This document shows, piece by piece, positions 6,624-32,000 of a stretch of DNA of 32,000 bases. The notes beneath the pieces were generated by a model. That model made no database searches and was not told the DNA's origin. It worked only from the letters and a program-made list of their open reading frames with translations. The DNA comes from Marinicellulosiphila megalodicopiae (GTDB taxonomy: Bacteria; Pseudomonadota; Gammaproteobacteria; Pseudomonadales; Natronospirillaceae): assembly GCF_045862395.1 (NCBI RefSeq), contig NZ_AP023087.1, positions 1,699,990-1,731,989 of the forward strand, read 5' to 3'. Numbering within the stretch: position 1 is the stretch's first letter; the number at the start of each line of letters is the position of its first letter. Position numbers and translations under genes: made by a program.

Positions 6624-7549
6624 AATTGATTTCCTATCCAGTTAAACAAATCGCTCATGGCATCTTGAGCGCTTACGTCGTTAAAAATCTCGTGCCTTGC
6701 ATTTGGGTAGGTGAGAGATTCAAATTGATTATTTTGTTTACTAAGTGATGTTTTTAATCGATCAACGCCACCTTTTAAATGTGCGTTACAACAAAATTCC
6801 CCTTGTTGTAATAATATTGGAAAGTGGAAATGATGGTTTTGTACTTGATTATCTAAGCTGCTTAAACAGGATAATAGCCCACTCCACATGCCATTAGTTG
6901 GTATAAAACCACATAATGGATCTTGTAAGTATAGGTCAACTTCTTCAGTTTTTGAGGACAGCCAATCAAAAGCGCTTCGATTTGGCTTAAAAGGTTTGTT
7001 AAATGCTGAAAATGTTAGCTCATCAAAAAATTCACTTTTTGCTGTTTTGCCTTTGATTTTACATAAAGTTTTATTAATCAATGTAGCGGCTAAAATCATG
7101 GGTTTAGTATTATAACCGCTTCCTGAAAGTATTAACCCATCAATAGATGGGTTATTTCTAATACAGTAATCCAGGGCTATATATGAGCCCATTGAGTGGC
7201 CTAATAGGAATGTTTTTAAATTAGGTGCGATGCTCTCGCGTAATTCTAAAATAAACTGAATGCGCTCGGACATTTGGGTAAATGGACCGTCTAAATGGCC
7301 TAACTGTTCGCAGTGCTCACCATGACCAATGTGATCCCAAGCTAACACGTTGATATTTTGTTGGTTAAAGTACTGGGCGAATCTTTCATAGCGTTCGCTA
7401 TGCTCAGCAAGGCCATGTGCAATTAGCAGCCATGCTTTAGGTTTTGCTACTAACCAGGCTCTATAGTGAATGTCGTCGTTTTCTTGTTCTAACCAGTCAG
7501 CTAAATATTGCATCGCGTCCTTTCCTGTAAAAAATTGTAATTCTGACAA
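6620..7549 (-). CDS. Alpha/beta hydrolase (lysophospholipase / monoacylglycerol-lipase-like)
   Basis: 309 aa with HGLAEHSERY (oxyanion region), nucleophile elbow GHSMGS, and a C-terminal ARHEIFND that supplies the catalytic His. Its stop overlaps the yqgE start by 4 nt. Confidence 0.8.
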   Translation of the reverse strand: MSELQFFTGKDAMQYLADWLEQENDDIHYRAWLVAKPKAWLLIAHGLAEHSERYERFAQYFNQQNINVLAWDHIGHGEHCEQLGHLDGPFTQMSERIQFILELRESIAPNLKTFLLGHSMGSYIALDYCIRNNPSIDGLILSGSGYNTKPMILAATLINKTLCKIKGKTAKSEFFDELTFSAFNKPFKPNRSAFDWLSSKTEEVDLYLQDPLCGFIPTNGMWSGLLSCLSSLDNQVQNHHFHFPILLQQGEFCCNAHLKGGVDRLKTSLSKQNNQFESLTYPNARHEIFNDVSAQDAMSDLFNWIGNQL

Positions 7550-7623
7550 GCTTTACTTCTAAAATACATCAGAATTTTTAAAAATGTGTAAATGGTCTAG
7601 TCTTAAAGAGAATTATTGAAATT

Positions 7624-8445
7624 TTGAGGTTGATTTTGCACAAATTGAAAGCTGTATTTTTAATTATATTTTTGTTCTTTAATGTGCAATGTGTGCATGC
7701 TTTTGATGAAAATGGCCATAGAGTGATTGCGCAAATAGCTTTATCATATTTATCTAGTGACGCTAAAAAAAGATTAAGTGTTATTTTTGGTGAAGATTAT
7801 CAGCAACTCTTTTTAGAAGCTCCGGATTATATTGCAATTAAAGAGCAAAATTTAGACAGTAAATGGATGAAAAATCTGCATTATGTCTTTTTTAATGCAG
7901 AGGATGAATCCTTTGATCCTCAAACACATTGTCCACATAATCAGTGTTCTGTTGCTGCGGTTTTAGAATCTAAAGTGGTGTTGCAAAAAGCCAAATATTC
8001 CACCACACAAAAACGGCAGGCTTTACGTTATTTGGTGTATTTTATAGGGGATATTCACATGCCAATGAATAATGGCTTTTTAGTGGATCGAAGCGGAAAT
8101 AAAATTCAACTGCAAAAAAATGATTTGTCATATGTCAGTTTAAACTGGGCTTGGAATAAAGGCTTGATGATCGAAAAGGATCAAAAATGGTTTGCATTAA
8201 GTGGTCAATACAGAAAAAGTATCGACAGGGAGCAAATCCAATTATGGAGTGAACAGGTAGAACCAGCTCAATGGGCAATTGAGTCACATCTATTAGCAAA
8301 AGATTTTGGTTATAGATTAGCCCAAAATAAACGTTATGATTCTGTGTTTATAAAGGAAGCTATGCCTGTCTTTGATTTGCAGTTAAAAAAAGCAGCAATC
8401 CGCTTGGCAACTATGCTCAATCAGCTTTATTCTGCAATTGATTAA
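7624..8445 (+). CDS. Secreted S1/P1-type nuclease family protein
   Basis: Signal peptide ending VHA, then FDENGHRVIAQIA, a HYVFFN-type region, and LRYLVYFIGDIHMPMN (the HxGDxHQPxH-like metal site). There is no ATG start: TTG 7624 is used in the track, and TTG 7636, preceded by GAGG, is an alternative. Confidence 0.65.
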   Translation: MRLILHKLKAVFLIIFLFFNVQCVHAFDENGHRVIAQIALSYLSSDAKKRLSVIFGEDYQQLFLEAPDYIAIKEQNLDSKWMKNLHYVFFNAEDESFDPQTHCPHNQCSVAAVLESKVVLQKAKYSTTQKRQALRYLVYFIGDIHMPMNNGFLVDRSGNKIQLQKNDLSYVSLNWAWNKGLMIEKDQKWFALSGQYRKSIDREQIQLWSEQVEPAQWAIESHLLAKDFGYRLAQNKRYDSVFIKEAMPVFDLQLKKAAIRLATMLNQLYSAID

Positions 8446-9576: not shown

Positions 9577-11901
<2,325 letters not shown>

Positions 11902-11915
11902 TAAATAGTTAAAAA

Positions 11916-11941
11916 AAGGCTGATTTAATCAGCCTTTTTTG
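11916..11941 (+). terminator. Rho-independent terminator after icd
   Basis: AAGGCTGAT-TTAA-ATCAGCCTT hairpin followed by a T-run and preceded by an A-run. Confidence 0.8.
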
Positions 11942-12129
11942 TGCCTGTCGTTTATAAATTTGATATGAAATTATGGATGATATAAGAAAAAATCTCGTTT
12001 TATAATAATTAAGTGTCCCCATTCTATAGCCCTTCTTTTATTTTCGATTAACTGAAAATCGATTCTTTTAACTTAAAAAAATACATGACTCAATTTTAAA
12101 GTGACATTCTTTTCCTGTACGGCAACTCT

Positions 12130-12145
12130 TGGCCTTGTGTTTGCA
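12130..12145 (+). promoter_or_regulatory. Sigma-54 (RpoN) -24/-12 promoter upstream of fliE
   Basis: TGGCCTTGTGTTTGCA matches TGGCAC-N5-TTGCW, with GG (12131-12132) and GC (12143-12144) at exactly the consensus spacing. It is the only such site I saw in the 430-nt icd-fliE gap. fliE operons are RpoN-dependent in polar-flagellate gammaproteobacteria. Confidence 0.6.
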
Positions 12146-12374
12146 TTTGACGTTTTACGAAGAAAATTAGTCAATGTAATGACAATTTAATATTTATATT
12201 AAATGGGGTGTAAAAACCGGGAACAAAAGGGACTTTCTTTGTGGCTTGGTTGGGACGAATCAAGTGGGAGTATGGAGTCAGGATGATTGCTTTATTTAAA
12301 GCGACACCTACAAAATAACAGGGCAAGTGTTGAGTAGGTGAATTTTTTTATTTGAGATAAGTTAGGGGGCCGAA

Positions 12375-15654: not shown

Positions 15655-17100
15655 ATGCCAGAGATTCCTCTAAAACCAGAAGATCAAGAATTGTGTCGTA
15701 TTCATGATTATGAATACGAACAATGGGGAGAGCAAAAAGAAAAAGCCAAACCAAAAGCAATGAATGCTGAAAAAAAAATAAAACCAGAAGAGAAGCCAAA
15801 GTATCCAACCATTGACGAGTTGCAGAAAATTCGTGACGATGCTTTTAATGAAGGATTTGAGTTAGGTTATAAAGAAGGTATTGCAAAAGGAAAAAAACAA
15901 GGCGAGGCTGATGGGTTTGAATCAGGTAAAAAAGAAGGTCATGAAGAAGGATTAAAGGCAGGAACCGAAAAAGGGTTGAAAGACGGTTTTGACCAATCAA
16001 AAAAAGACGTTGAAGACACCTATTTAGTAAAATTTAAAAAACAAAATGAAATTTGGCAAAGCGTGATCGATCGATTAAAACAAAGTATTGATGAGCAAGA
16101 TGAAAACATAAAATCATCTTTGACACAGTTGATTGTTCAAATTTGCCGCGGCATTTTTGTGAAAGAAATGGCATTAAAACCCGAGCATATTTTATATATT
16201 GTGAAGCAAGTATTGGATGCGTTACCAAATGACGAACAAAAATTACAAATATTTGTAAATAGTGATGATCATGCAGAATTAGAAAAAGTTATGGATTTTC
16301 ACCCTAATCAAGAACTGCAATACAATATTGATGATGCATTACAAAGTGGGGGGTGCATAGTTAAAGCTAAGTATTCTTATGTGGATTATTCATTATCAAA
16401 ACGTTTTCAAAACCAGTTAAAAGATTTAATGGAATCCGTGACAGAGTTAGATTGGGATTGCATCATTAACTTGCAAAAACCATTGCCTGAAAATGACATC
16501 ATTGAAGAACTTGAGAATGAAGAACTTGAGAGTGAAGAACTTAAGAGTGAAGAACTTGAGATTGAAGGTGAGTTAATAGTTGAGGATGAAATAGAAACTG
16601 AAGAACCTCAAATCGAAGATAAAGAGTCCGTTGAATATGATGGATCAGTTAAAGACGAAGAAATATCAGCAGAGTTAAATGAGCCGACTACTAAAGAAGA
16701 AAGAAATCAAGAAGCTGAAGAGCTTGTAACTGAAGAGCTTGAAACTGAAGTTGTACAAAGTGCTGAAGATAATAAAAAAGAACTAGACAACAAAGAACAA
16801 AGTCAAGAACCATCGTTGACAGAAACAGAAACAGAAACAGAAACAGAAACAGAAACAGAAACAGAAACAGAAACAGAAACAGAAACAGAAACAGAAACAG
16901 AAACAGAAACAGAAACAGAAACAGAAACAGAAACAGAAACAGAAACAGAAACAGAAACAGAAACAGAAACAGAAACAGAAACAGAGCAAAGTAAAGCTGA
17001 AACATTAGATCAACAAGAACAAGAAAAAGAACAAGAAAAAGAAAAAGAACAAGCCGAACAACTGAAAGACGAAATAAAAAAGGACGATAAAAATGTCTGA
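15655..17100 (+). CDS. fliH: Flagellar export assembly protein FliH with a roughly 210-aa acidic low-complexity C-terminal extension
   Basis: Position between fliG and fliI. N-terminal region with the FliH-type repeated AxxxG/GxxxG segment ([49 protein letters not shown]) and the FliI-binding core (...[16 protein letters not shown]). It then continues for about 210 more residues of E/T/K-rich sequence. The stop overlaps the fliI start by 8 nt. Confidence 0.85.
16504..16563 (+). repeat. 15-bp tandem repeat x4 inside fliH ([20 protein letters not shown])
   Basis: GAAGAACTTGAGAAT, GAAGAACTTGAGAGT, GAAGAACTTAAGAGT and GAAGAACTTGAGATT, in frame. Confidence 0.9.
16819..16986 (+). repeat. Hexanucleotide microsatellite (ACAGAA)x27 plus ACAGAG, encoding (Thr-Glu)x28 inside fliH
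   Basis: Counted directly: 27 perfect ACAGAA units over 16819-16980, then one synonymous ACAGAG. Codon-aligned with the fliH frame. Confidence 0.97.
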
Positions 17101-19310: not shown

Positions 19311-19530
19311 GGGTTGCCTTTATATTAAGTTTAATTTAATAGTTACATTTAATATTCTATTCGGATTTAATTGTATAGCTTTATGGCATAAGTACGATAT
19401 GCCTGAATGGGTAGGTGGGTTGTTAGCCGTAGGGTGGATTCCATATCCGCCATTTTCTACGCGGCCGATATAAAAATTGTAAGAAATATTTATTTTTCAT
19501 TATTGTCCATGTCAAATATAAAGCCCACCC

Positions 19531-19642
19531 GAGATAACAATGTGAGTGATAGTTTCTAGTCATCTTCAACTGTTTTATCGTTGGAGATCCAGTGGCTTTA
19601 GTCTTTGCTTTCAGATTAAAAGTGGATGTTTGTTTTGGTTTT
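19531..19642. repeat. Mosaic intergenic repeat cluster A (X-tail, Y and K-like modules)
   Basis: The 40-bp Y module GTCATCTTCAACTGTTTTATCGTTGGAGATCCAGTGGCTT (19559-19598) matches 26711-26749 and 22261-22300 at 37 of 40 positions each. It is flanked by AACAATGTGAGTGATAG (X-tail) and AAAAGTGGATGTTTGTTTTGG (K-like). Confidence 0.85.
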
Positions 19643-19735
19643 ACGATATCTTTACTTGTGAATAAATGATTAAGTAATGTTATTATGGTATGAATCTTCA
19701 AACCCATTAAAATAATAGTTAATCAAAGGAAAATA

Positions 19736-21409
19736 ATGAAATCGGTATTTGTTTTTTTAATCCCCTTTATTGCGATAATGACATTCATAGGCTGTTCAGA
19801 AATTGGTAATGATAACGCAGGTAATGTGCTTGCTGAGCAAGACGTTAAGGCAGACTTTTTTCAATTTACAGACGCAAATGATGTGCAGCCAACACAATTA
19901 ATTGAAAGTAATGAAGTAGTTGTTACTGGAATTAGTGGGAACGTGGCAGTCAGTGTAATTGGAGGGAAATATAGTATTAATGGTAGTAATTATACTAATA
20001 ATAATGGTTACATTAATAATAATGACTCGATCAAAGTTCGAGGGGTGTCTTCTGATCTATATGGTGTCTCGAATAATGTAGAATTAAGTATTGTCAATGC
20101 TTTTTATAATTTTAAAATCACCACAAAACAAGTTCCTGTTATTGGTGTTGAAGATGTTAATTATGAAAGTAATAATGAAATATCTACATCAATTACTGCT
20201 TATAAAGATGAGGTTTACAATGATTTAACTTTTGTTATTAGTGAAAATATAGTTGATGTGGATCATTTTGAATTTTCAGTTAGCTTTGAAGATCAGGAAA
20301 TAATTGCGGATCAAAGTATTAATATAATTGATAATGGACACTCTAAGAAGATTAGCTTTACTCCAAGTTCAGTTGGTCAAACTGTATTAACTGGACTATT
20401 AGTAAATACATTAACGAATGAATCGTTAATAACGACATTGACAGTGAATGTCGTTGAATTACAAATCAAAGCAAATTTGTTTGCTGCATCTAACTCTAGA
20501 GATATGGTTCATAACCCAGCTAACAACACTCTATACATTACAGATGGGAGCGATGTGCTGCATTATGACTTGTTATCTGGCCAGTTACTGGAAAGGATAA
20601 GTGTCGGTGGAAATTTAATTGGTATCGATATTAATCAAAATAATTCACAGTTAGTTGTGGCTGACGGAACAAGATTTGAGAATACAAGTAGTCGATTTGA
20701 TGATGAAGTTAACCTTTATTTTATTGAAATTGATTCTCATGTGGTTTCTTCTATGGTTATAGACGCAGAGTTTGGTGAGTCGGGATCTTATTCAGTGTTA
20801 TATTTACCCGATAATAAAATAATGTTTACCACCGATTATGCTGGCTCTGGTGGTGTTTTAGTAAGGATTGTTGATTTAGGGTCAGATGCGGTTTTATATG
20901 AAAGAAGCATTGAACAACGAACAATGTTAAATGCTAATAATGACAGATCAATCATCGTGCTTTCTGAATCAAATAGTAGTGCTGGGCCATTTGGTATTTA
21001 TAATATTGAGACCAATTTAACAAAGCGGGGTCGAACCGATTCATTTTTGTATGATATTTCCATCGATCGAAATAATGAGTTTGTGGCAATTCCTAGTATT
21101 ATGTCTTTGAAAATATTTGATAATATTGGGAATTTAATAATAAGAATTGATTCAGAAAATTATGGCATACCTTTGGGGGTGGCTTATAGTCCTGTTTCAG
21201 ATTTGCTTTTTGTTCCATGGGCAGATAAATCTAGTATTGGTATATTTAATTCAATAACAAATGAATTTGTTGAGAATATTTCAATTCCGCATATTATGAA
21301 TTGGCATAATAATAAAGGTATGAATGACGGGCGTATTAAAATTTCAAAAGATGGGTCTCTAGGGTTTGTTCAGGTTGTGGGGGGGATTCATAGTTTTATA
21401 ATTCAATAA
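19736..21409 (+). CDS. Putative lipoprotein: N-terminal beta-sandwich repeats plus C-terminal YVTN/YncE-like beta-propeller
   Basis: Signal peptide with a lipobox-like TFIGC, SD AAGGAAA, and repeated NxxxLYITD / GIDIN / VADG-type blade motifs in the C-terminal half. Function unknown. Confidence 0.7.
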   Translation: MKSVFVFLIPFIAIMTFIGCSEIGNDNAGNVLAEQDVKADFFQFTDANDVQPTQLIESNEVVVTGISGNVAVSVIGGKYSINGSNYTNNNGYINNNDSIKVRGVSSDLYGVSNNVELSIVNAFYNFKITTKQVPVIGVEDVNYESNNEISTSITAYKDEVYNDLTFVISENIVDVDHFEFSVSFEDQEIIADQSINIIDNGHSKKISFTPSSVGQTVLTGLLVNTLTNESLITTLTVNVVELQIKANLFAASNSRDMVHNPANNTLYITDGSDVLHYDLLSGQLLERISVGGNLIGIDINQNNSQLVVADGTRFENTSSRFDDEVNLYFIEIDSHVVSSMVIDAEFGESGSYSVLYLPDNKIMFTTDYAGSGGVLVRIVDLGSDAVLYERSIEQRTMLNANNDRSIIVLSESNSSAGPFGIYNIETNLTKRGRTDSFLYDISIDRNNEFVAIPSIMSLKIFDNIGNLIIRIDSENYGIPLGVAYSPVSDLLFVPWADKSSIGIFNSITNEFVENISIPHIMNWHNNKGMNDGRIKISKDGSLGFVQVVGGIHSFIIQ

Positions 21410-22100: not shown

Positions 22101-22550
22101 CAAAAGTGAGTGTCACTTTTGAGCGTCTTGTGAGCATCTTTCTAATGGGTTAGTTGTGAGTCAATTATGGATCCGACCCCAATATTACGACCCCAATATT
22201 AACCTGTAGGTTGCCTTTTAAGGGAACAAAACAACGGTAAGTCAATATGGATAATTACTCGTCATCTTCAGCAGGTTTATCGCTGGAGATCCAGTGGCTT
22301 TGTAATGGGTATGGCGAAATGAGCATCTTTCTATTGGGTTGGCGTGTGTCAATTTTGGATCCGACCCCAATATTATTAAAAATAAAAACGTAGGGTTGAG
22401 CTTTAGCTAAAACACTAAAGTGGGTGTCCCTTTTGATCTGTGTGTCAATTTTGGATCCGACCCCAATATTATTAAAAATAAAAACGTAGGGTTGAGCTTT
22501 AGCTAAAACACTAAAGTGGGTGTCCCTTTTGATCTGTCCCTTTTGATCTG
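22101..22550. repeat. Mosaic intergenic repeat cluster B (K-G-X-Y-G-K-G-K)
   Basis: Modules are:
- K: CAAAAGTGAGTGTCACTTTTGAGCG at 22101
- G: GGATCCGACCCCAATATT at 22169, 22357 and 22453
- X: TTGCCTTTTAAGGGAACAAAACAACGGTAAGTCAATATGG at 22211
- Y at 22261
- GAGCATCTTTCTAWTGGGTT at 22131 and 22321. Confidence 0.9.
22344..22535. repeat. Perfect 96-bp tandem duplication (2 copies), followed by a 14-bp tandem duplication (22523-22536 / 22537-22550)
   Basis: 22344-22439 and 22440-22535 read identically (GTGTGTCAATTTTGGATCCGACCCCAATATTATTAAAAATAAAAACGTAGGGTTGAGCTTTAGCTAAAACACTAAAGTGGGTGTCCCTTTTGATCT). TCCCTTTTGATCTG is then repeated once more. Confidence 0.95.
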
Positions 22551-23229: not shown

Positions 23230-23790
23230 ATGTGGTTAACAAATGATATAAATATCATTAAATCTATGCATGATGTGTTTGGGTTAAAACAGAGTGTATT
23301 TTCAATTCTTTCCATTTTTAGCTTCTCTATACTCAGTACCATTTTATTATTGTATATCGGATGGGATTTTTTAAGTGAATTAGCGTTATGGAAAACAATC
23401 GTTGCAATGGTGATTGTTTTAGATATTAATGCTGGATTAATTGCCAACTTTACAAAGGGTACTAATGATTTCTACCAAAATGAACCTAAAAAAAGATGGA
23501 TCTTTATCTCGATTCATTTCCATGTATTAATTGTTGCTTGGCTGTTTGAAGTTGAAAGTTATAGTGCAGTCGTTATTTCTTGGGTGGCTACAATATCAGT
23601 TGCGTCGATGCTGAATATATTGAAAAGTAGCGCGTGGAGTTCAATGCAGAGAATAGTCGCTGCAGTGTGTCTAGGGTTGGGCTTAATTTTAATCATGGTT
23701 TTAAATTGGTCGAATTTAGTTTTACAAATAGTGGCTATGTTGTTTTATATTAAAGTGGCTTATAGCTTTTCGGTTAACCACTATGAATAA
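23230..23790 (+). CDS. Integral membrane protein of unknown function (5-6 TM helices)
   Basis: 186 aa, strongly hydrophobic. Overlaps the next GNAT gene by 8 nt (ATGAATAA), which suggests translational coupling. Confidence 0.6.
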   Translation: MWLTNDINIIKSMHDVFGLKQSVFSILSIFSFSILSTILLLYIGWDFLSELALWKTIVAMVIVLDINAGLIANFTKGTNDFYQNEPKKRWIFISIHFHVLIVAWLFEVESYSAVVISWVATISVASMLNILKSSAWSSMQRIVAAVCLGLGLILIMVLNWSNLVLQIVAMLFYIKVAYSFSVNHYE

Positions 23791-24412
23791 TATACAGTAT
23801 TATGAATTAACAAAAGCAGACGTAAAGCAAGCTGTTGATTTAATTGAATTAAGCTTTAGGCAGGATCCAATGTTTTTGTCTATATTTAGAAGTATAAAAT
23901 GTCGAAAGTTTTTTATTCATTATTTAATCAAACAAAATAATATTATCGGTGGAGCAACAACTGTTGCGATTAGTCAAAATAAAATGGTCGCTGTTTATTT
24001 ATTAAAACCCTATATTGCTAATCGATTTATTAATTTTCTAAAAGAATGCCAAGCGTTTATAGTCTTTTTACCACTTTTATTTAAGATTGGATTAAAATCA
24101 AGCAAACAGTTAAATGATTATTATAAAATAATTTCAAAAACAAAACCTAAAGGCCCACACTCATACCTCACTTTAATTGCGGTGAGTGATCATGCGAAGG
24201 GGCGAGGTGTGGGAAAAATGGTTTTACAAAATATTATTGAGCGACTACAAATTGAAAACAAATCTCAGGCATTGTTACTAGACACTGAAAACAAAGAAAA
24301 TATCGGATTTTATGAACATTTAGGTTTCACACTAACTCAAACTAAATCCGTCAATGAACTTAATATTTACTCTATGAAAAAAGTTAGTTCAGACATCCAA
24401 AATAAAAACTAG
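23783..24412 (+). CDS. GNAT-family N-acetyltransferase
   Basis: 209 aa with acetyl-CoA motif A, LIAVSDHAKGRGVGKMVLQNII, and a C-terminal FYEHLGF. Confidence 0.8.
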   Translation: MNNIQYYELTKADVKQAVDLIELSFRQDPMFLSIFRSIKCRKFFIHYLIKQNNIIGGATTVAISQNKMVAVYLLKPYIANRFINFLKECQAFIVFLPLLFKIGLKSSKQLNDYYKIISKTKPKGPHSYLTLIAVSDHAKGRGVGKMVLQNIIERLQIENKSQALLLDTENKENIGFYEHLGFTLTQTKSVNELNIYSMKKVSSDIQNKN

Positions 24413-24470
24413 GCTAATCCCCAAAAAAGAGCATTTTTTGTCCAAAATCTCAAAATCAAAACTAATCAAG
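24404..24470. repeat. E repeat, copy 1 (degenerate hairpin version)
   Basis: AAAAACTAGGCTAATCCCCAAAAAAGAGCATTTTTTGTCCAAAATCTCAAAATCAAAACTAATCAAG aligns over about 68 bp with 25753-25821, roughly 85 percent identical by eye. Confidence 0.8.
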
Positions 24471-25671: not shown

Positions 25672-25752
25672 GTTTTACCATTAAGTAAACTAATTAATCC
25701 TATGCGTTAAAATAGGGTGAATCGATAGCAAGCTAAACCAGACAACCAAAGT

Positions 25753-25821
25753 AAAACTTAGGCTAATCCCAAAAAGATTAGCCTTTTTTTGTACAAAATT
25801 TCAAAATCAGGACTAATCAAG
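25753..25821. repeat. E repeat, copy 2 (intact hairpin plus T-run; probable terminator of the GNAT module)
   Basis: GGCTAATC-CCAAAAA-GATTAGCC followed by TTTTTTT, then the conserved tail GTACAAAATTTCAAAATCAGGACTAATCAAG. Confidence 0.75.
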
Positions 25822-25954
25822 CCGCCATAAAAAAACCAACAAATCATTATGGTCACCTCACAATCCATGCTCATCAACCGCCAATATCCATGATGTACAA
25901 GAATAAATGGAACAAGTTCGAAATAATGTACATACTTGGTGAATATAGCAATTG

Positions 25955-25964
25955 TGTTGCAACA
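25955..25964. promoter_or_regulatory. Perfect palindrome TGTTGCAACA 20 nt upstream of vapB (candidate VapBC operator)
   Basis: Seen directly in the sequence. Type II TA operons are usually autoregulated through palindromes overlapping their promoter. Confidence 0.3.
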
Positions 25965-25983
25965 ACAGATAGGCGGAACCATC

Positions 25984-26217
25984 ATGGCTAAAGGCAGTAT
26001 TTTTACAAACAATCGAACCCAAGCAGTGCGATTACCTGCGCAAATGCGTTTTGATGATGATATAAAGCAGGTAAGTGTCAGAATCGTAGGTAAAGAGCGT
26101 ATTCTTTGCCCATTAGAGAACACCTGGGACAGTTTCTTTATGCAGGATCAAAGCGTAGATGACGATTTTATGTCAGAGCGTGCCGAGCAAACTGAAACAA
26201 AGCGTGAGTCGTTTTAA
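25984..26217 (+). CDS. vapB: VapB-type antitoxin (AbrB/SpoVT fold, VagC/MvpA-like)
   Basis: MAKGSIFTNNRTQAVRLPAQMRF...WDSFF...ERAEQTETKRESF matches the SNRSQAVRLP...RESF pattern of VapB/MvpA. The start is moved to ATG 25984. Confidence 0.88.
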   Translation: MAKGSIFTNNRTQAVRLPAQMRFDDDIKQVSVRIVGKERILCPLENTWDSFFMQDQSVDDDFMSERAEQTETKRESF

Positions 26218-26228
26218 TACTCAAATAT

Positions 26229-26624
26229 ATGCGCAATACAAACATTGTCATATACATTATAAAGCGCCGCCCAATTGAAGTATTGACTCAGTTTAATAAC
26301 CACCAAGGACAATTATGCATTAGTAGCGTGACCTTGGCGGAGTTAATTCATGGGGTTGAAAAAAGCGAAAGACCTGAGCACAACCTTAAGCAAGTAGAAG
26401 ATTTTATTTCACGCTTAGAAGTGCTTGATTATCAAAGTGGTGCCGCGTTTCATTATGGTGAAATACGAGCGAATTTAGAAAAAAAAGGCACCACCATAGG
26501 TGTGAATGATTTGCATATTGCAGGGCATGCTCGAAGTGAAGGGTTGATTATTGTCACAAATAATTTAAAAGAATTTGATCGCGTAGAAGGATTGCGTTGT
26601 GAAAACTCGGTGGCAGAGCACTAG
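26229..26624 (+). CDS. vapC: VapC-type PIN-domain toxin with Asn at the first catalytic Asp position
   Basis: Collinear with Shigella MvpT/VapC as I recall it (...NIVIYIIKRRP...CISSVTLAELIHGVEKS...VNDLHIAGHARSEGLIIVTNNLKEFDRVEGLR). The N-terminus reads MRNTNI rather than MLDTNI. Confidence 0.85.
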   Translation: MRNTNIVIYIIKRRPIEVLTQFNNHQGQLCISSVTLAELIHGVEKSERPEHNLKQVEDFISRLEVLDYQSGAAFHYGEIRANLEKKGTTIGVNDLHIAGHARSEGLIIVTNNLKEFDRVEGLRCENSVAEH

Positions 26625-26649
26625 TTTAATATTGGCGCCCAATAAAATA

Positions 26650-26676
26650 GAGCTCGATTTAATCGAGCTTTTTTTG
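26650..26676 (+). terminator. Rho-independent terminator after vapC
   Basis: GAGCTCGAT-TTAA-ATCGAGCT followed by TTTTTTT. The loop and the downstream GTGCCTGTYG..TTATA resemble the icd terminator context at 11916-11960. Confidence 0.7.
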
Positions 26677-26710
26677 TGCCTGTTGGTTATAGAAGAGGAA
26701 AGCTTCACTC

Positions 26711-27019
26711 GTCATCTTCAACTGTTTTGTCGTTGGGGATCCAGTGGCTGCGGTTTTAGTTTGATGGTTAAAAGTGAAAGGGCAGTCAAAATGTGGGTGA
26801 TGGCTTGCCTTCATAACTATCCTAAAAAAAATTTGGATCCGACCCCAATATTGCAAAAGAACAACAAGAAGTACCAAAAGTGGATGTGAATTTGGGTTCT
26901 TGTTTTCCTCTAGATTGCCTTTTAAGAGAACAAAAGCAACGGTAAGTCAATGTGGGTGAGTGCTTGCCCTCATGGGAAATAATTCAAAAGTGGGCGTCGC
27001 TTTTGATAGCTATTGGGTT
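26711..27019. repeat. Mosaic intergenic repeat cluster C (Y, X-tail, G, K-like, X, K)
   Basis: Modules are:
- Y at 26711-26749
- GTCAAAATGTGGGTGATGGCTTGCC at 26786
- G: GGATCCGACCCCAATATT at 26835-26852
- K-like at 26874
- X: TTGCCTTTTAAGAGAACAAAAGCAACGGTAAGTCAATGTGG at 26915-26955
- K: CAAAAGTGGGCGTCGCTTTTGATAGC at 26985-27010. Confidence 0.9.
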
Positions 27020-27083: not shown

Positions 27084-27923
27084 ATGGAAATCGAAACGTT
27101 ATTAACCCCACTGATTAAACCCTTTGTATATTTTGTAATATTTTCAATTTTTGTGGCAGTGATCAAGTCTGCTTGGTTCAAAGGTAAACTAGGGGAGTTT
27201 AAGGTTAATCTATTGCTGAAGTTGTTTCTAAATAAAGCACAGTATCATCTAATTAAAAATGTCACGTTACCGACCTTTGATGAATCAGGTCAGCACAGCG
27301 GAACCACACAGGTTGATCATATTGTAGTGAGTGCATTTGGTGTGTTTGTGATTGAAACCAAACATTTTAAAGGTTGGATATTTGGCAGTGAGTTCCAAAA
27401 GCAGTGGACACAACAGATTTACAAACATAAATCGAGATTCCAAAACCCGTTACTGCAAAACTACAAACATTGTAAAACCATAGAAAACCTGTTGGGTTTA
27501 GATGGCACTGACAAACAAGACAAGACCAAACGTTTGATCAAAAGCTTGGTGGTATTCACAGGCAGTGCTGAGTTTAAAACCGAGCTTCCAACGAATGTGT
27601 GTTATGACTCAAAACTGATTAAAACAATTAAAGGATTTAAAACCCAATTATTAGACGCACAGCAAGTGGCAAAAATAATCGAACAGATAGAATCTGGCCG
27701 ATTAAAGCGTGGGTTTGTTACTGACAAACAACATGCCGAGCATGTGAAGGTACTTGTTAAAGACAGTCAGTCAAGAGGCGGGAAAAGAGATAGTCAAAGA
27801 GTTACCCAAAGAGTAACGTCGTCAGGTAAACATGACAGACAGGGTGGTTTGAAGCGGGGTAGTAGAGTGGGTAGTGAGGTGGTTAGGTCTGAGATTGCTC
27901 GTGAAACTAGCGCTCAAGACTAG
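27084..27923 (+). CDS. NERD-domain (PD-(D/E)xK-like) nuclease-related protein, ending at an in-frame TAG
   Basis: N-terminal TM, then the NERD core TTQVDHIVVSAFGVFVIETKHFKGWIFG...WTQ, followed by a basic low-complexity linker. A perfect TATAAT lies at 27039-27044 upstream. Confidence 0.8.
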   Translation: MEIETLLTPLIKPFVYFVIFSIFVAVIKSAWFKGKLGEFKVNLLLKLFLNKAQYHLIKNVTLPTFDESGQHSGTTQVDHIVVSAFGVFVIETKHFKGWIFGSEFQKQWTQQIYKHKSRFQNPLLQNYKHCKTIENLLGLDGTDKQDKTKRLIKSLVVFTGSAEFKTELPTNVCYDSKLIKTIKGFKTQLLDAQQVAKIIEQIESGRLKRGFVTDKQHAEHVKVLVKDSQSRGGKRDSQRVTQRVTSSGKHDRQGGLKRGSRVGSEVVRSEIARETSAQD

Positions 27924-28091: not shown

Positions 28092-28289
28092 AGTTGGCTG
28101 AAGCCTGAAATCGTGATTTTATAACGCTTTTCCGTTGAACTTAATGGCTGATGGGGGACGCGACTTCGTTATTTCCGGAAAGAGCTCAGTTGCTCAGACT
28201 CATTTCATGTTGGACAAGGCTTAAGCTCTTGATAAAGAAGTCTTTAGTGTAATATATTAACGGGAATATATATTTAATAAGACTTTTTT

Positions 28290-31200
28290 ATGAACGATAT
28301 CCAAATACCTGACTTTCTAAAAAAGTCCTTAGCTAGTGGCGAAGTTATTCCTTTGATTGGTGCTGGTGTTTCAATGTCAATTAAAACCAAGGAAGGTGAA
28401 AAAGCATTTCCTTCTTGGTCCGAATTACTTTTTAATGCAGCAGAAAAGCTAGAGAAAGAAGATAGTCAACTTGTTAAGCTTCAAGTAAAAAGAGGGAAGC
28501 TGCAACGCGCGGCTGAAGAAGCACAGGAGCTTCTAACAGGTCGTCCTTGGGGGGACTTTCTTAACTCACAGTTTTCTATTAATTTCAAAGAATTAGATGT
28601 TAGAGGTAAAGCGCTTCCTAAAGCTATTTGGCGATTAAGTAATAGAGTTGTCACTTTGAATTATGACAAGGTTCTTGAATGGGCTCACGAAGAATCTGCA
28701 AATTTATGTGTTTTTGACAATTCTAATTGCACTCAACTTTCAGAGTTTTCAAGACCAAGTCAACAAGAGATGCTCTGGCATTTGCACGGCACAATTGAAC
28801 ACCCAAAACACATGGTACTTACTCCGCAATCATACCACCGCTTATACGAAGAAGAAGCTGAAAAAAACTACAAAGCAGCGCTTACCAAGTTTAGAGAGGT
28901 GATTAGCAATAAGATCATTCTTTTTATTGGTTGCTCACTTGATGACGCAGAACTACTCGCTGAAATAGTGAAACAAAACGAGCTATTTGATGGGAATACT
29001 GGCCCTCATTATGCGCTGGTAAGAAAAACGGATGAACAGGAAATCAAGTCTAAGTTAACAGATAGTCATGTTCAAACCATTACTTTTAGTGATTTTGGTC
29101 AACCACTTATTGATGCTGTCACACAATTAGCTGAATGCAAAAAACAGCAACAGCTAGCAATCAATAATGAAAAAGAACTTAACCAACAACCTAAACTTGA
29201 CAATGACAAAGAACAAAAAAAGAAATTCAATAAAATAAGCCTGTTTACGGCCTCACCTTTAGATAAACCATTAGATGAAATTGATATCATCGCAAAACTT
29301 AAAAAATATAAATACCCTATTTTTCAACAAGCTTTCACCGAAAATAACCTAATGCAAGCCGATGATTACTCAATTATTTTATTACTCGCCAAGAAAACGA
29401 ATGGCGGACTTCTAATTGAAGATGATAATGCTTGTAGTGATTATTTAACTATTGAGGAGTTAGAACAAAACTTGCCAGTGAATGCTAAATTAACAGTATT
29501 GATAACGGACAAGTTACTTAGTGAGCAAGAACTAAAAACAATTAACTTTCCTTTGCTTGTTTTACCTGTATTAAATAAGCAGGGGAAAGATTTAAACATT
29601 CTAGATAAATTAACTCACCAGCTGTTTAAAAAACAGGATATTAAACCCTTTGTTGATAAAGAAGACATTCAATTAGTACAAGTTAGCGACGAGTTATTGA
29701 AGTCACTTAACCCTGAAAATCGAAAGGATTGGTTGAAGCATAATCCTGTATTACCCCGTGATATTAACTCAAGTGAGCTACAAGGTTTTACTGGGCGATT
29801 ATCTGATTTAGCTGATATTAGTCAAAAACTTACCAAAGCGGCGAATGGCCAAAGATTATTAACCATCAAGGGGAGTGGCGGGCTAGGAAAAACTACGATA
29901 GCAAAAAAAGTTGCATTAGAATTAGCCAATCGTGGCCGCTTTGATGCAGGCGTTTACTTTGTTGATTGTGAAAGTATAACCAGCGTAAATCAACTTGAAA
30001 TGCATATAGGTGAAGCTTTTAAATTACGCTCCGCTGATGATTTATTTGGCTACTTGGCGCAACATCACGATCAGCTTAGTCGCTTGTTGATTTTTGATAA
30101 TTTAGAAAGTTTGCTGTATTTAAAAAAATCTGACAAACAGCAAAACAAACAAGCTGTAGATCAAGTTAAAATTTTGTTATCACGTACTTTGATGTATGCG
30201 AACGTATTAGTGACCTCAAGAGAGATTATGAACACTGAATGGGAAGATGTGCTGTCGTTCAGGCAAATGGAATCTGAAGAGGCGCTAACCCTATTTAATC
30301 GTTTAACCAAAAATAACTATCTCAACGAAGATGATCAGGGCTATGTACGTAGGAAAATTTTAGAGCCGCTACTTAACAATAATCCGTTAGCTATTAAACT
30401 TATTTGTGATGGCATGCCTAATGGTAAGTGCTTAAAAGGGTTGAAAAAAGAGTTAGAAGATGACTTTTTTGGTAAGGTCAAAGAAGAAGATTTAATCTTG
30501 ATGTTTGACGATGAAGTTGACGCTAATATTAACCGCCAAGAATCGCTTTACGTTTCTATTCTATATTCATATGAAACGCTAAATAATAGTCAGAAGAGAG
30601 CGCTTGAATCATTTTCTCTATTTCCAGATGGTATTGACTTAAAAACCTTTAAGGCTTTGGTAGCAGAAAGCAAAAAAAGTGACCGAAACCAATACGAGAA
30701 TAAATTTAAAAAACCCGTTAGCGACAAAGATATTACGGTACTTGCAAATAAATCATTAATTGAAAGTAATAATGGAATTTATTCTCTACAGTCTGTCATT
30801 CAACGTTTTTCCCGTTTTCGATTTGACCAAAACACTCAAGAAAAAGATAAGATTGAACTTTTTAGAGGAGCACTTCGTTATAATGAGAAAACGCTGGAGT
30901 TTATTCAAAAATTAGAGAGAGTAAATAAAAAAGCAATCCCTCTATTTCTTTCAATCGTAAATAACTTATTCGCTGCAATTACCTATGGAACTAAAGAAAA
31001 TGTTGTGAGAAATTCAGAAGAAATAGAAGATTATTTTCATATGGTAAGAGCAATTAAAAACTTATCAATTACATTGAACTTATCTCACGACTTTTTAACC
31101 GTACTTAATGAAAATGCTATTGAACATCTCATCACTGAAAATAATAAAGAACAGCTAGAATTAGCATGGCAACTATTTAAAGTTAGCTCTATGTATTATA

Positions 31201-32000
31201 ACGGGGAATTTGATACTGCGTACAGCCAGTTAAATTCATTAATCCCTGTTAAGCTATTAATGACTATCTATGAAAATGATGAAAATGATGAACTTAATAA
31301 TATAATTTATCATACGGCGCAACACGTATATTCCATGGAAGGTGATATTATCAATAATGTTTTGCATATTGAAAAGTTTAATCAGTATCGCTATTTTACG
31401 TTAGTAGCATCTCAAGTACAAACAGCAATGAATGTTGAGCCATTGATGAAGCTGGTTATTCCTGACTTAGATTACTTCGAAGCGCAAAGTTATTTAAGTG
31501 AGGGTGTAGACCTTAATCAAATAAATAAAGTGATTGATGAGTTGCACGAGAATGAACATTTAGACCGAGTAAATTTAACTTATATTAAGTCACGTGATGA
31601 GTATGTGAATTATGAGGTTATCGAAAAATTAGTTAATGTAAACCCTTATACGAGAGGTTTAAAAAGACTGATGTATGCACTTTCATTTGAACATAAATTA
31701 CTTGCTGAAGAGGCTAACCCTGAAAAGAGTATTCCTGACGAGCATAATATCGAATTAAATAATAGGGTTATCGGTTATTATCAATCAGCATTAACTGATT
31801 TAAAGCATATCAAATTTTACTACGTGCAAGCACTTTATTTTTATGCGAGGTTTCTACAAAAAACAGATAATAAAAATTTCGAAAAAGTCTATGAAAACGG
31901 ATTACAATTAACGAAAAAACACCATTATCGTCTTTGGCAACATAAGTTTCATTTGTTGAAACAGCCAGCATTAGGGCCCTATAAACCTGAGAACTATCCT
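28290..32000 (+). CDS. SIR2-like / degenerate CHAT-like module / NB-ARC STAND ATPase / helical-repeat protein, 3'-truncated by the window edge (candidate anti-phage sensor-effector)
   Basis: My own translation: ATG at 28290, then 1,237 sense codons to nt 32000 with no stop, which is why it is absent from the track. Motifs seen:
- SIR2_2-type: VIPLIGAGVSM, TLNYD (N124, nt 28659), WHLHG (H166, nt 28785), LFIGCSLDD
- NB-ARC Walker A: GSGGLGKTT (29871-29897)
- NB-ARC Walker B: LLIFDNLE (D603, nt 30096)
- further NB-ARC motifs: VLVTSRE, a GLPL-like NNPLAIKLI, an RNBS-D-like FSLFPDGIDL, and LQS at the MHD position
- alpha-helical repeats from about nt 30825 onward. Confidence 0.85.
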   Translation, partial: MNDIQIPDFLKKSLASGEVIPLIGAGVSMSIKTKEGEKAFPSWSELLFNAAEKLEKEDSQLVKLQVKRGKLQRAAEEAQELLTGRPWGDFLNSQFSINFKELDVRGKALPKAIWRLSNRVVTLNYDKVLEWAHEESANLCVFDNSNCTQLSEFSRPSQQEMLWHLHGTIEHPKHMVLTPQSYHRLYEEEAEKNYKAALTKFREVISNKIILFIGCSLDDAELLAEIVKQNELFDGNTGPHYALVRKTDEQEIKSKLTDSHVQTITFSDFGQPLIDAVTQLAECKKQQQLAINNEKELNQQPKLDNDKEQKKKFNKISLFTASPLDKPLDEIDIIAKLKKYKYPIFQQAFTENNLMQADDYSIILLLAKKTNGGLLIEDDNACSDYLTIEELEQNLPVNAKLTVLITDKLLSEQELKTINFPLLVLPVLNKQGKDLNILDKLTHQLFKKQDIKPFVDKEDIQLVQVSDELLKSLNPENRKDWLKHNPVLPRDINSSELQGFTGRLSDLADISQKLTKAANGQRLLTIKGSGGLGKTTIAKKVALELANRGRFDAGVYFVDCESITSVNQLEMHIGEAFKLRSADDLFGYLAQHHDQLSRLLIFDNLESLLYLKKSDKQQNKQAVDQVKILLSRTLMYANVLVTSREIMNTEWEDVLSFRQMESEEALTLFNRLTKNNYLNEDDQGYVRRKILEPLLNNNPLAIKLICDGMPNGKCLKGLKKELEDDFFGKVKEEDLILMFDDEVDANINRQESLYVSILYSYETLNNSQKRALESFSLFPDGIDLKTFKALVAESKKSDRNQYENKFKKPVSDKDITVLANKSLIESNNGIYSLQSVIQRFSRFRFDQNTQEKDKIELFRGALRYNEKTLEFIQKLERVNKKAIPLFLSIVNNLFAAITYGTKENVVRNSEEIEDYFHMVRAIKNLSITLNLSHDFLTVLNENAIEHLITENNKEQLELAWQLFKVSSMYYNGEFDTAYSQLNSLIPVKLLMTIYENDENDELNNIIYHTAQHVYSMEGDIINNVLHIEKFNQYRYFTLVASQVQTAMNVEPLMKLVIPDLDYFEAQSYLSEGVDLNQINKVIDELHENEHLDRVNLTYIKSRDEYVNYEVIEKLVNVNPYTRGLKRLMYALSFEHKLLAEEANPEKSIPDEHNIELNNRVIGYYQSALTDLKHIKFYYVQALYFYARFLQKTDNKNFEKVYENGLQLTKKHHYRLWQHKFHLLKQPALGPYKPENYP

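Follow-up and report, generated by a model that had tools for sequence, protein, structure and literature searches.

A SIR2-NB-ARC protein with a predicted dyad-less caspase-fold module in Marinicellulosiphila megalodicopiae, a candidate NLR-like anti-phage sensor

Among described systems, the Avs5 proteins (EfAvs5, PaAvs5 and EcAvs5) are known to combine a SIR2_2 effector, a STAND nucleotide-switch domain (NOD) and a helical sensor in one polypeptide. In EfAvs5 and PaAvs5 the SIR2 asparagine, Walker A and B and the sensor are all required, and assembly switches on the NADase (PMC11897194; 10.1101/2025.07.08.663546). Activation by assembly has also been shown experimentally for filament-activated sirtuins (PMC12700824). 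A census of STAND proteins has catalogued at least 90 defence-associated families (PMC13581612), with 589 clades and 684 sensor clusters (PMC13581612, PMC12803255), and almost certainly includes the clade considered here. We analyzed a gene that opens at position 28290 of a stretch of 32,000 nucleotides (nt) from Marinicellulosiphila megalodicopiae (contig NZ_AP023087.1, positions 1,699,990 to 1,731,989; the whole stretch is called the window, and positions refer to it). An earlier note, made from the DNA letters alone, had proposed that its product joins a SIR2 domain, an NB-ARC ATPase and helical repeats in an anti-phage protein. Profile searches, predicted structures and the distribution of relatives lead us to regard it as probably a stand-alone and horizontally mobile gene for an NLR-like sensor, one whose family is uncharacterised and which would act against phages by depleting NAD+.

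The reading frame is free of stops from the ATG to base 32000, the last base of the window, over 1237 codons. An in-frame TAG lies upstream (28245-28247) and the ATG is the first start codon after it; the resulting N-terminus agrees with those of homologues and with a public protein of 1275 amino acids (aa) from Marinicellulosiphila megalodicopiae (Oceanospirillales), BCE01354.1 / WP_422382300.1, to which the translation is 100% identical. The gene end (codon 1275) was taken from this public protein, and the final 38 residues lie beyond the window. The giant open frame of the earlier note thus belongs to a real, intact gene, and on re-reading the translation we found every motif it had quoted in its place. 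Its description of the frame as unlisted was an artefact: the gene is already in GenBank as 'SIR2 family protein', and it was missing from the track of open reading frames (ORFs) because the ORF lister omits those running off the window end. A promoter-like sequence shortly before the ATG (Table 1) suggests that the gene may have its own promoter.

Both catalytic parts named in the earlier note were recovered by their Pfam profiles above threshold. SIR2_2 (PF13289) matched residues 119-258 (E=7e-23, 81.7 bits against a curated cut-off of 24.5), with the catalytic Asn and His present, and PADLOC matched the same part to LmuA (1e-19) and ThsA (1e-15). The nearest PDB sequences in single-sequence, domain-wise and profile searches were FAM118B, ThsA and KomC, which are NADases or NAD-processing sirtuins according to their depositors or papers. 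N124 aligns with N112 of ThsA, H166 with the histidine of the ThsA 'MHG' motif, and the GAGxS loop with FAM118B and other SIR2 NADases. Across 39 homologues of 29-87% identity, the alignment used for all statements on conservation, N124 and H166 are invariant and the GAGVS loop is invariant or near-invariant. The SIR2 domain is therefore homologous over its full length to those of ThsA (Thoeris), KomC, LmuA-SIR2 and FAM118B, the defence-type or 'SIRim' sirtuins, with catalytic residues and GAGxS loop aligned; unlike the present protein, these are regulated by SLOG-bound signals, partners or concentration-dependent filamentation rather than by a fused STAND module.

Alternatively, the SIR2 domain might not hydrolyse NAD+ in bulk but act as an ADP-ribosyltransferase on proteins or nucleic acids, as a deacylase or as the maker of an NAD-derived signal, with immunity or toxicity arising through target modification. 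Sirtuin-fold enzymes are diverse in their NAD-dependent activities, and the closest solved relative, FAM118B, alone processes NAD only weakly (PMC12700824). The effectors carried in place of SIR2 by relatives described below (Mrr nuclease, CHAT protease, HD-CE, PRTase-CE) also differ in chemistry, and for this reason the chassis does not dictate NAD+ depletion. However, the closest bacterial profile relatives (ThsA, KomC and LmuA-SIR2) are annotated or published as NADases, and the ThsA Asn/His pair aligns exactly. TIR and DUF4062/NIR, which substitute for SIR2 in relatives, are likewise described as NADases. We therefore consider an activity other than NAD+ hydrolysis very unlikely, and NAD+ depletion remains the preferred expectation for this effector.

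Pfam NB-ARC (PF00931) matched residues 508-713 (E=4e-12, 46.3 bits, cut-off 23.5) and spanned profile positions 6-209 of 248, that is the nucleotide-binding domain (NBD) plus the ARC1-like helical domain (HD). Matches to nSTAND3 (29.4 bits, cut-off 27.2) and NACHT (PF05729; 27.2 bits, cut-off 26.7) were marginal and scored below NB-ARC, while NCBIfam returned nothing specific for the protein. Walker A, Walker B, sensor-1 Arg and a GLPL-like motif follow each other in this order and lead into a winged-helix domain (WHD), and the NBD/HD/WHD topology appears in an AlphaFold2 model of residues 480-1275 (predicted local distance difference test, pLDDT, 87; predicted template-modelling score 0.86). 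Invariant residues include G528/G530/G531/G533/K534/T535 in Walker A, D603/N604/E606 in Walker B, T642/R644, L700/A701 and F778/P779/G781, and P699 is near-invariant. Just past the WHD hairpin, the motif LQSVIQRF has an invariant L833 and a near-invariant F840; it holds no conserved His.

The NOD retrieved Roq1, ADR2, other plant NLRs, AfsR and Apaf-1 in PDB sequence searches. With the model of residues 480-1275, Foldseek matched the NRC1 NB-ARC (E=4.5e-7, target-normalised TM-score, TMt, 0.64) and Apaf-1 (1e-6), and further NRC2, ZAR1, RPP1, NRC3/4, Roq1, CED-4 and Dark; no bacterial Avs structure was among its top 50 PDB matches. The root-mean-square deviation of the model was 6-8 A to resting-state structures and 16-17 A to activated resistosomes, and since the resting structures superpose better the model resembles a closed, inactive state. 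By sequence and predicted structure, then, the NOD is of the NB-ARC/AP-ATPase type, unlike that of the solved Avs5, in agreement with the proposal that it is APAF-1/R-protein-like rather than Avs-type. Plant NLRs and Apaf-1/CED-4/Dark provide the best profile and Foldseek matches and share the motif order and a WHD with a motif at the MHD position. They differ from the present protein, which is bacterial, has SIR2 rather than CC, TIR or CARD as effector, a predicted alpha-solenoid rather than LRR or WD40 as sensor, and LQS in place of MHD.

These results also bear on whether the protein is a divergent member, a fourth clade, of Avs5 / AVAST type 5 that behaves like PaAvs5 and EfAvs5, for example by forming SIR2/NOD filaments. 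The tripartite logic of SIR2_2, STAND and helical repeats is identical, and the mode of action expected in both cases would be sensor-triggered assembly that switches on NAD+ hydrolysis. The Pfam model that describes the Avs5 NOD, nSTAND3, is above threshold (29.4 vs 27.2 bits), and known Avs5 clades are only ~20% identical to one another, so failed sequence searches are weak evidence. Against this, NB-ARC beats nSTAND3 (46.3 vs 29.4 bits) and covers NBD plus HD. PADLOC at E<=1 gave no Avs or bNACHT model, the presence of an Avs5 hidden Markov model in the library being unconfirmed, and its only match besides LmuA and ThsA was a weak mad8. EfAvs5 (9JAP) was absent from the PDB phmmer, domain-wise and profile searches at E<=1 to 10, its presence in the library being likewise unconfirmed, and it lay outside the Foldseek top 50, which included plant NLRs and Apaf-1. 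Thus no sequence similarity or top-ranking structural similarity to EfAvs5 was detectable, and the sensor is unrelated to that of Avs5 by the searches done. The spacing from Walker A to Walker B is 69 aa, compared with 47 aa in EfAvs5, and a module of 138 aa for which EfAvs5 has no room lies between SIR2 and NOD. We therefore consider an Avs5 identity distinctly unlikely and have not adopted it, for want of a family-model match, with nSTAND3 marginal and a module between SIR2 and NOD. Membership of bNACHT was not adopted either, the NACHT score being far under that of NB-ARC and no bNACHT match being found in PADLOC.

The extra module that the earlier note had noticed between SIR2 and NOD was recovered as a folded domain of 138 aa. 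It contributes to a distance of 410 aa between N124 and K534, compared with 238 aa between N141 and K379 in EfAvs5 (PMC11897194). The AlphaFold2 model of residues 313-450 has a pLDDT of 88 overall and above 95 in its core. Among PDB structures Foldseek ranked the CHAT domain of a SAVED-CHAT filament first (8tl0; E=6.5e-4, prob 1.0), with caspases-11, -4, -1 and -3 and Craspase behind it. In some family members a genuine CHAT domain, its HFCGHG...NSC dyad intact, stands at the N-terminus, and hhalign aligned the module with these domains over 114 columns (87% probability, E=3.8e-6). In this alignment the catalytic His corresponds to K368 (K/R/S/T in the family) and the catalytic Cys to D407 (D/N/E), and no column of the module alignment reaches 60% Cys or His. 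Profile and structure comparisons thus indicate that residues 313-450 are a CHAT/caspase-fold domain without the His/Cys dyad, here called pseudo-CHAT. An active CHAT was ruled out by the missing dyad, and a TIR/Rossmann identity by Rossmann/receiver matches that were weaker and shorter than the CHAT/caspase ones. In 27 members no Pfam family matched the module, CHAT and Peptidase_C14 included, even at E<=10. A profile search of 1.84 billion representative proteins found pseudo-CHAT in only 131 clusters; full-length matches sit in proteins of ~1000-1400 aa, and many shorter matches are evidently fragments.

A pseudo-caspase acting as a structural partner or scaffold is known from Csx29 (TPR-CHAT, Craspase) and separase (PMC10028731); unlike in those systems, the present protein has no active protease partner, and its pseudo-domain sits between SIR2 and NB-ARC. 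The AP-ATPase/caspase-fold systems (Nature 2026) likewise join an AP-ATPase-type NOD with a caspase-fold and swappable conflict effectors, and a few members of the present family bear an active N-terminal CHAT; the caspase-fold next to the NOD here is, in contrast, dyad-less and constant behind non-protease effectors. In the searchable literature we found no description of a dead caspase-fold between a non-protease effector and an NB-ARC. Pseudo-CHAT stays in place behind every type of effector. Its most likely role is that of a structural adaptor, which would transmit or stabilise the oligomerisation of the NOD and so bring the effectors together, and the domain may be what is left of an ancestral arrangement that paired an active CHAT with a pseudo-CHAT. 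A bolder alternative, which we regard as unlikely, is that the dead caspase-fold is the obligatory NOD-to-effector coupler of an undescribed NLR chassis, serving as a dimerisation platform or a decoy. As a platform it would dimerise by proximity, like caspase-9 on the apoptosome; as a decoy it would bait phage inhibitors or proteases that target caspase- or CHAT-based immunity. If true, either role would mean a bacterial link between NB-ARC and the caspase-fold that is independent of protease activity.

The C-terminal part of the protein was predicted by AlphaFold2 to form ~25 helices with high confidence in a solenoid-like arrangement. It gave no match to a Pfam TPR model, and the Foldseek matches to PDB folds all stop short of it; of the earlier wording 'helical-repeat (TPR-like)', the all-helical character stands, and TPR-like is a structural description only. 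With a mean pairwise identity of 31%, compared with 35% for pseudo-CHAT and 44-49% for SIR2 and NOD, the sensor varies more than any other folded part of the protein.

Relatives were sought in 185,579 species genomes. Full-length relatives are patchy and occur in at least six phyla, including Pseudoalteromonas, Colwellia, Moritella, Vibrio, Methylobacter, Oryzomonas, Desulfobulbia and Massilia as well as Paenibacillus, Clostridium, Chitinophagaceae, Mucilaginibacter, Polaribacter and Sulfurimonas, among others. Several loci align only from about residue 300 on and begin with a Metallophos, TIR, Mrr-type nuclease or CHAT domain; other clusters carry HD-CE, PRTase-CE or DUF4062 ahead of the module, NOD and sensor, and in some members SIR2 is itself preceded by a CHAT or by the C-terminal domain of a CI repressor. 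Over 110 clusters that have an N-terminal region, the domains there comprise 86 SIR2, 6 TIR, 4 Mrr, 3 Metallophos and 2 CHAT. Such effector swapping on a constant chassis of module, NOD and sensor is a signature of NLR-like immune sensors. One Vibrio sp. member (P0074, 1393 aa) is unusual in having the phage CI-repressor C-terminal domain (PF16452) at residues 49-147, before SIR2.

Across 53 loci no neighbouring gene is conserved, and the recurrent ones are only generic histidine kinases and ABC transporters, which fits the single-protein system suggested earlier. Members occur on Peribacillus and Hymenobacter plasmids, beside recombinases and conjugation genes; a search of phage genomes found no homologue. 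In Idiomarina the gene stands by itself between motY and nth-rnf, and in Oceanospirillum it is surrounded by polysaccharide genes. With this patchy taxonomy, the plasmids and the unrelated contexts, it behaves as an accessory gene and not as the conserved core gene that would have spoken against a role in defence. Strong defence-model matches in PADLOC (DpdF, dCTPase, AriA, DRT, PsyrT, and also GajB-like or NERD-UvrD helicases) were found for a subset of 133 nearest neighbours at 36 loci. Two loci showed irregularities of their own. In Methylobacter tundripaludum SV96 (L017, 10001-15134) the match to the query spans 5.1 kb instead of the ~3.6 kb expected, and the homologue may be interrupted by an insertion of ~1.5 kb, e.g. 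a mobile element. In Idiomarina loihiensis (L083) a 139-aa ORF with a weak EndIII_4Fe-2S match lies on one flank (7343-7762) and a complete nth on the other (11699-12334), and the insertion may have left part of nth duplicated or disrupted.

The same distribution bears on the idea of a non-immune signalling STAND, an NB-ARC/TPR regulator of the AfsR, MalT or LuxR type that uses SIR2 for regulated deacylation. The NOD has weak similarity both to AfsR and to regulators of the LuxR/BTAD type found on actinobacterial plasmids, and the neighbours in Idiomarina and Oceanospirillum are housekeeping genes. On the other side, there is no DNA-binding or other regulatory output domain, the N-termini of relatives are toxic conflict effectors (TIR, Mrr, CHAT, HD-CE, PRTase-CE and DUF4062), and the distribution is sporadic and plasmid-associated, with no conserved neighbours. 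A regulatory role is, in our estimate, barely plausible.

For the anti-phage sensor that we favour, we infer every step beyond domain identification. At rest, the protein would be a closed, ADP-bound monomer, as the closeness of the model to resting NRC1/NRC2 and inactive Apaf-1 suggests. The variable C-terminal sensor would then bind a phage-derived ligand, most likely a protein, and binding would free the NOD for nucleotide exchange and oligomerisation. Oligomerisation would cluster the N-terminal SIR2 domains into an active assembly, whose hydrolysis of NAD+ would stop phage replication through growth arrest or abortive infection.

Several points weigh against this interpretation. The family is known from sequences and predicted structures alone, and PADLOC recognizes only the SIR2 domains and a weak mad8, with no Avs or bNACHT model, so that standard defence finders would probably miss a SIR2-NB-ARC gene. 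EfAvs5 assembles into filaments, not closed rings, and its action is not abortive in the classical sense; details of assembly and cell fate are for that reason not transferable. The caspase-fold assignment depends on moderate scores (Foldseek query-normalised TM-score, TMq, 0.48; hhalign 87%), and its role is one that we infer entirely. The count of defence genes among the 133 neighbours at 36 loci is uncontrolled and suggestive. Finally, VapBC and a NERD gene whose frame holds a stop, the immediate neighbours in the window, resemble defence genes only weakly, and the remaining ones have no PADLOC matches.

Table 1. Features of the SIR2-NB-ARC gene, its protein and two neighbouring loci (window positions)
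Feature	Residues	Position	Strand	Remark
MazE-like antitoxin plus PIN toxin (VapBC)		25936-26624		
NERD gene		27084-27923	+	ends at in-frame TAG 27921-27923
Promoter-like TTGATA-18-TATATT		28229..28258	+	~30 nt 5' of ATG; consensus scan 10/12, a consensus match only
SIR2 / pseudo-CHAT / NB-ARC / helical-sensor gene	1-1237 of 1275	28290..32000	+	codons in the window
SIR2 effector domain (SIR2_2, defence-type)	1-275	28290..29114	+	
IPLIGAGVS (GAGxS loop)	20-28	28347-28373	+	GAGVS = 24-28
TLNYD motif	122-126	28659-28661 (N124)	+	predicted catalytic N124
WHLHG motif	163-167	28785-28787 (H166)	+	predicted catalytic H166
Linker	276-312	29115..29225	+	low-complexity; pLDDT <50 in part; mean pairwise identity 14%
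Predicted dyad-less CHAT/caspase-fold domain (pseudo-CHAT)	313-450	29226..29639	+	
E377 of pseudo-CHAT	377	29418-29420	+	invariant; bona fide CHAT domains keep the same Glu
Connector ahead of NBD	451-500	29640..29789	+	
NBD of NOD	501-660	29790..30269	+	
Walker A GSGGLGKTT	528-536	29871-29897	+	K534
Walker B LLIFDNLE	599-606	30084-30107	+	D603
Sensor-1 TSR	642-644	30219-30221 (R644)	+	
Helical domain (ARC1-like)	661-760	30270..30569	+	
GLPL-like NPLAIKLI	698-705	30381-30404	+	
Winged-helix domain (ARC2-like)	761-848	30570..30833	+	predicted beta-hairpin plus helix
RNBS-D-like SLFPDG	776-781	30615-30632	+	
LQSVIQRF	833-840	30786-30809	+	at the place of plant-NLR MHD; putative equivalent, by position only
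All-alpha C-terminal sensor	849 to ~1260	30834..32000	+	runs past the window

A patch with TetR, three GNATs, VapBC and NERD comes directly after the fliE-fliJ operon, and the gene lies next to it on the far side. The vapBC pair, the NERD gene and the repeat-rich accessory region to which the earlier note had pointed were all located in the window. Beyond its TAG the NERD frame continues for 56 codons to 28094, and these specify a C4 zinc ribbon (CPKCGG...FFGCSAFPKCRG) of the topoisomerase type, a finger commonly joined to NERD domains. The locus resembles a NERD-zinc finger gene split by a nonsense codon, which could be a pseudogene, a sequencing error or a case of read-through.

Dispersed intergenic repeats occupy 19556-19640, 22131-22535 and 26708-26971, with a 69-nt unit present three times, a GGATCCGACCCCAATATT core four times, and further pieces in co-linear order; positions 22344-22535 hold a perfect tandem duplication of 96 nt. 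The repeats overlap two ORFs, 19423-19707 (-) and 26599-26889 (+), that have no Pfam match and are probably spurious. A 46-nt repeat occurs at 24381-24426 and 25730-25775 (80% identical). Two of the three GNAT genes, which are consecutive, have a copy at their 3' end or just beyond it, an arrangement that suggests either cassette-like duplication or a terminator or recombination site in common. Two further ORFs of the patch, 19736-21409 (+; 557 aa) and 23230-23790 (+; 186 aa), have no Pfam or PADLOC match. The FliH ORF (15655-17100, +) is unusually long at 481 aa, and the AT skew of 0.37 and low GC at 16001-17000 suggest a compositionally biased insertion within FliH. No tRNA was found in the window, and no Rfam family anywhere in it, including in the dispersed repeats, so there is no obvious marker of an integration site.

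The earlier note had suggested an undescribed architecture. The NB-ARC switch and the extra module bear this out in part, but the SIR2-STAND-sensor design is established by Avs5, and the protein is hence a variant of it. What is distinctive is the dead caspase-fold beside a switch like those of plant NLRs and Apaf-1, a combination not seen in characterised examples. The general principle of a SIR2-STAND sensor that depletes NAD+ has already been established through the Avs5 work. If confirmed, the present protein would represent an additional NLR-like defence family of ~130 clusters at 50% identity, scattered over marine Gammaproteobacteria, Bacillota, Bacteroidota, Desulfobacterota and other groups, and one that probably escapes current defence-finder models. 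Its switch domain, judged by sequence and predicted structure, would be the closest bacterial counterpart of the NB-ARC of plant resistance proteins and Apaf-1, and the family would show that a caspase-fold domain, although catalytically dead, can be a constant component of such a sensor. With at least eight effector types on one chassis, the family would offer a natural experiment in effector modularity, and its single scaffold would allow tests of how oligomerisation activates chemically unrelated enzymes.

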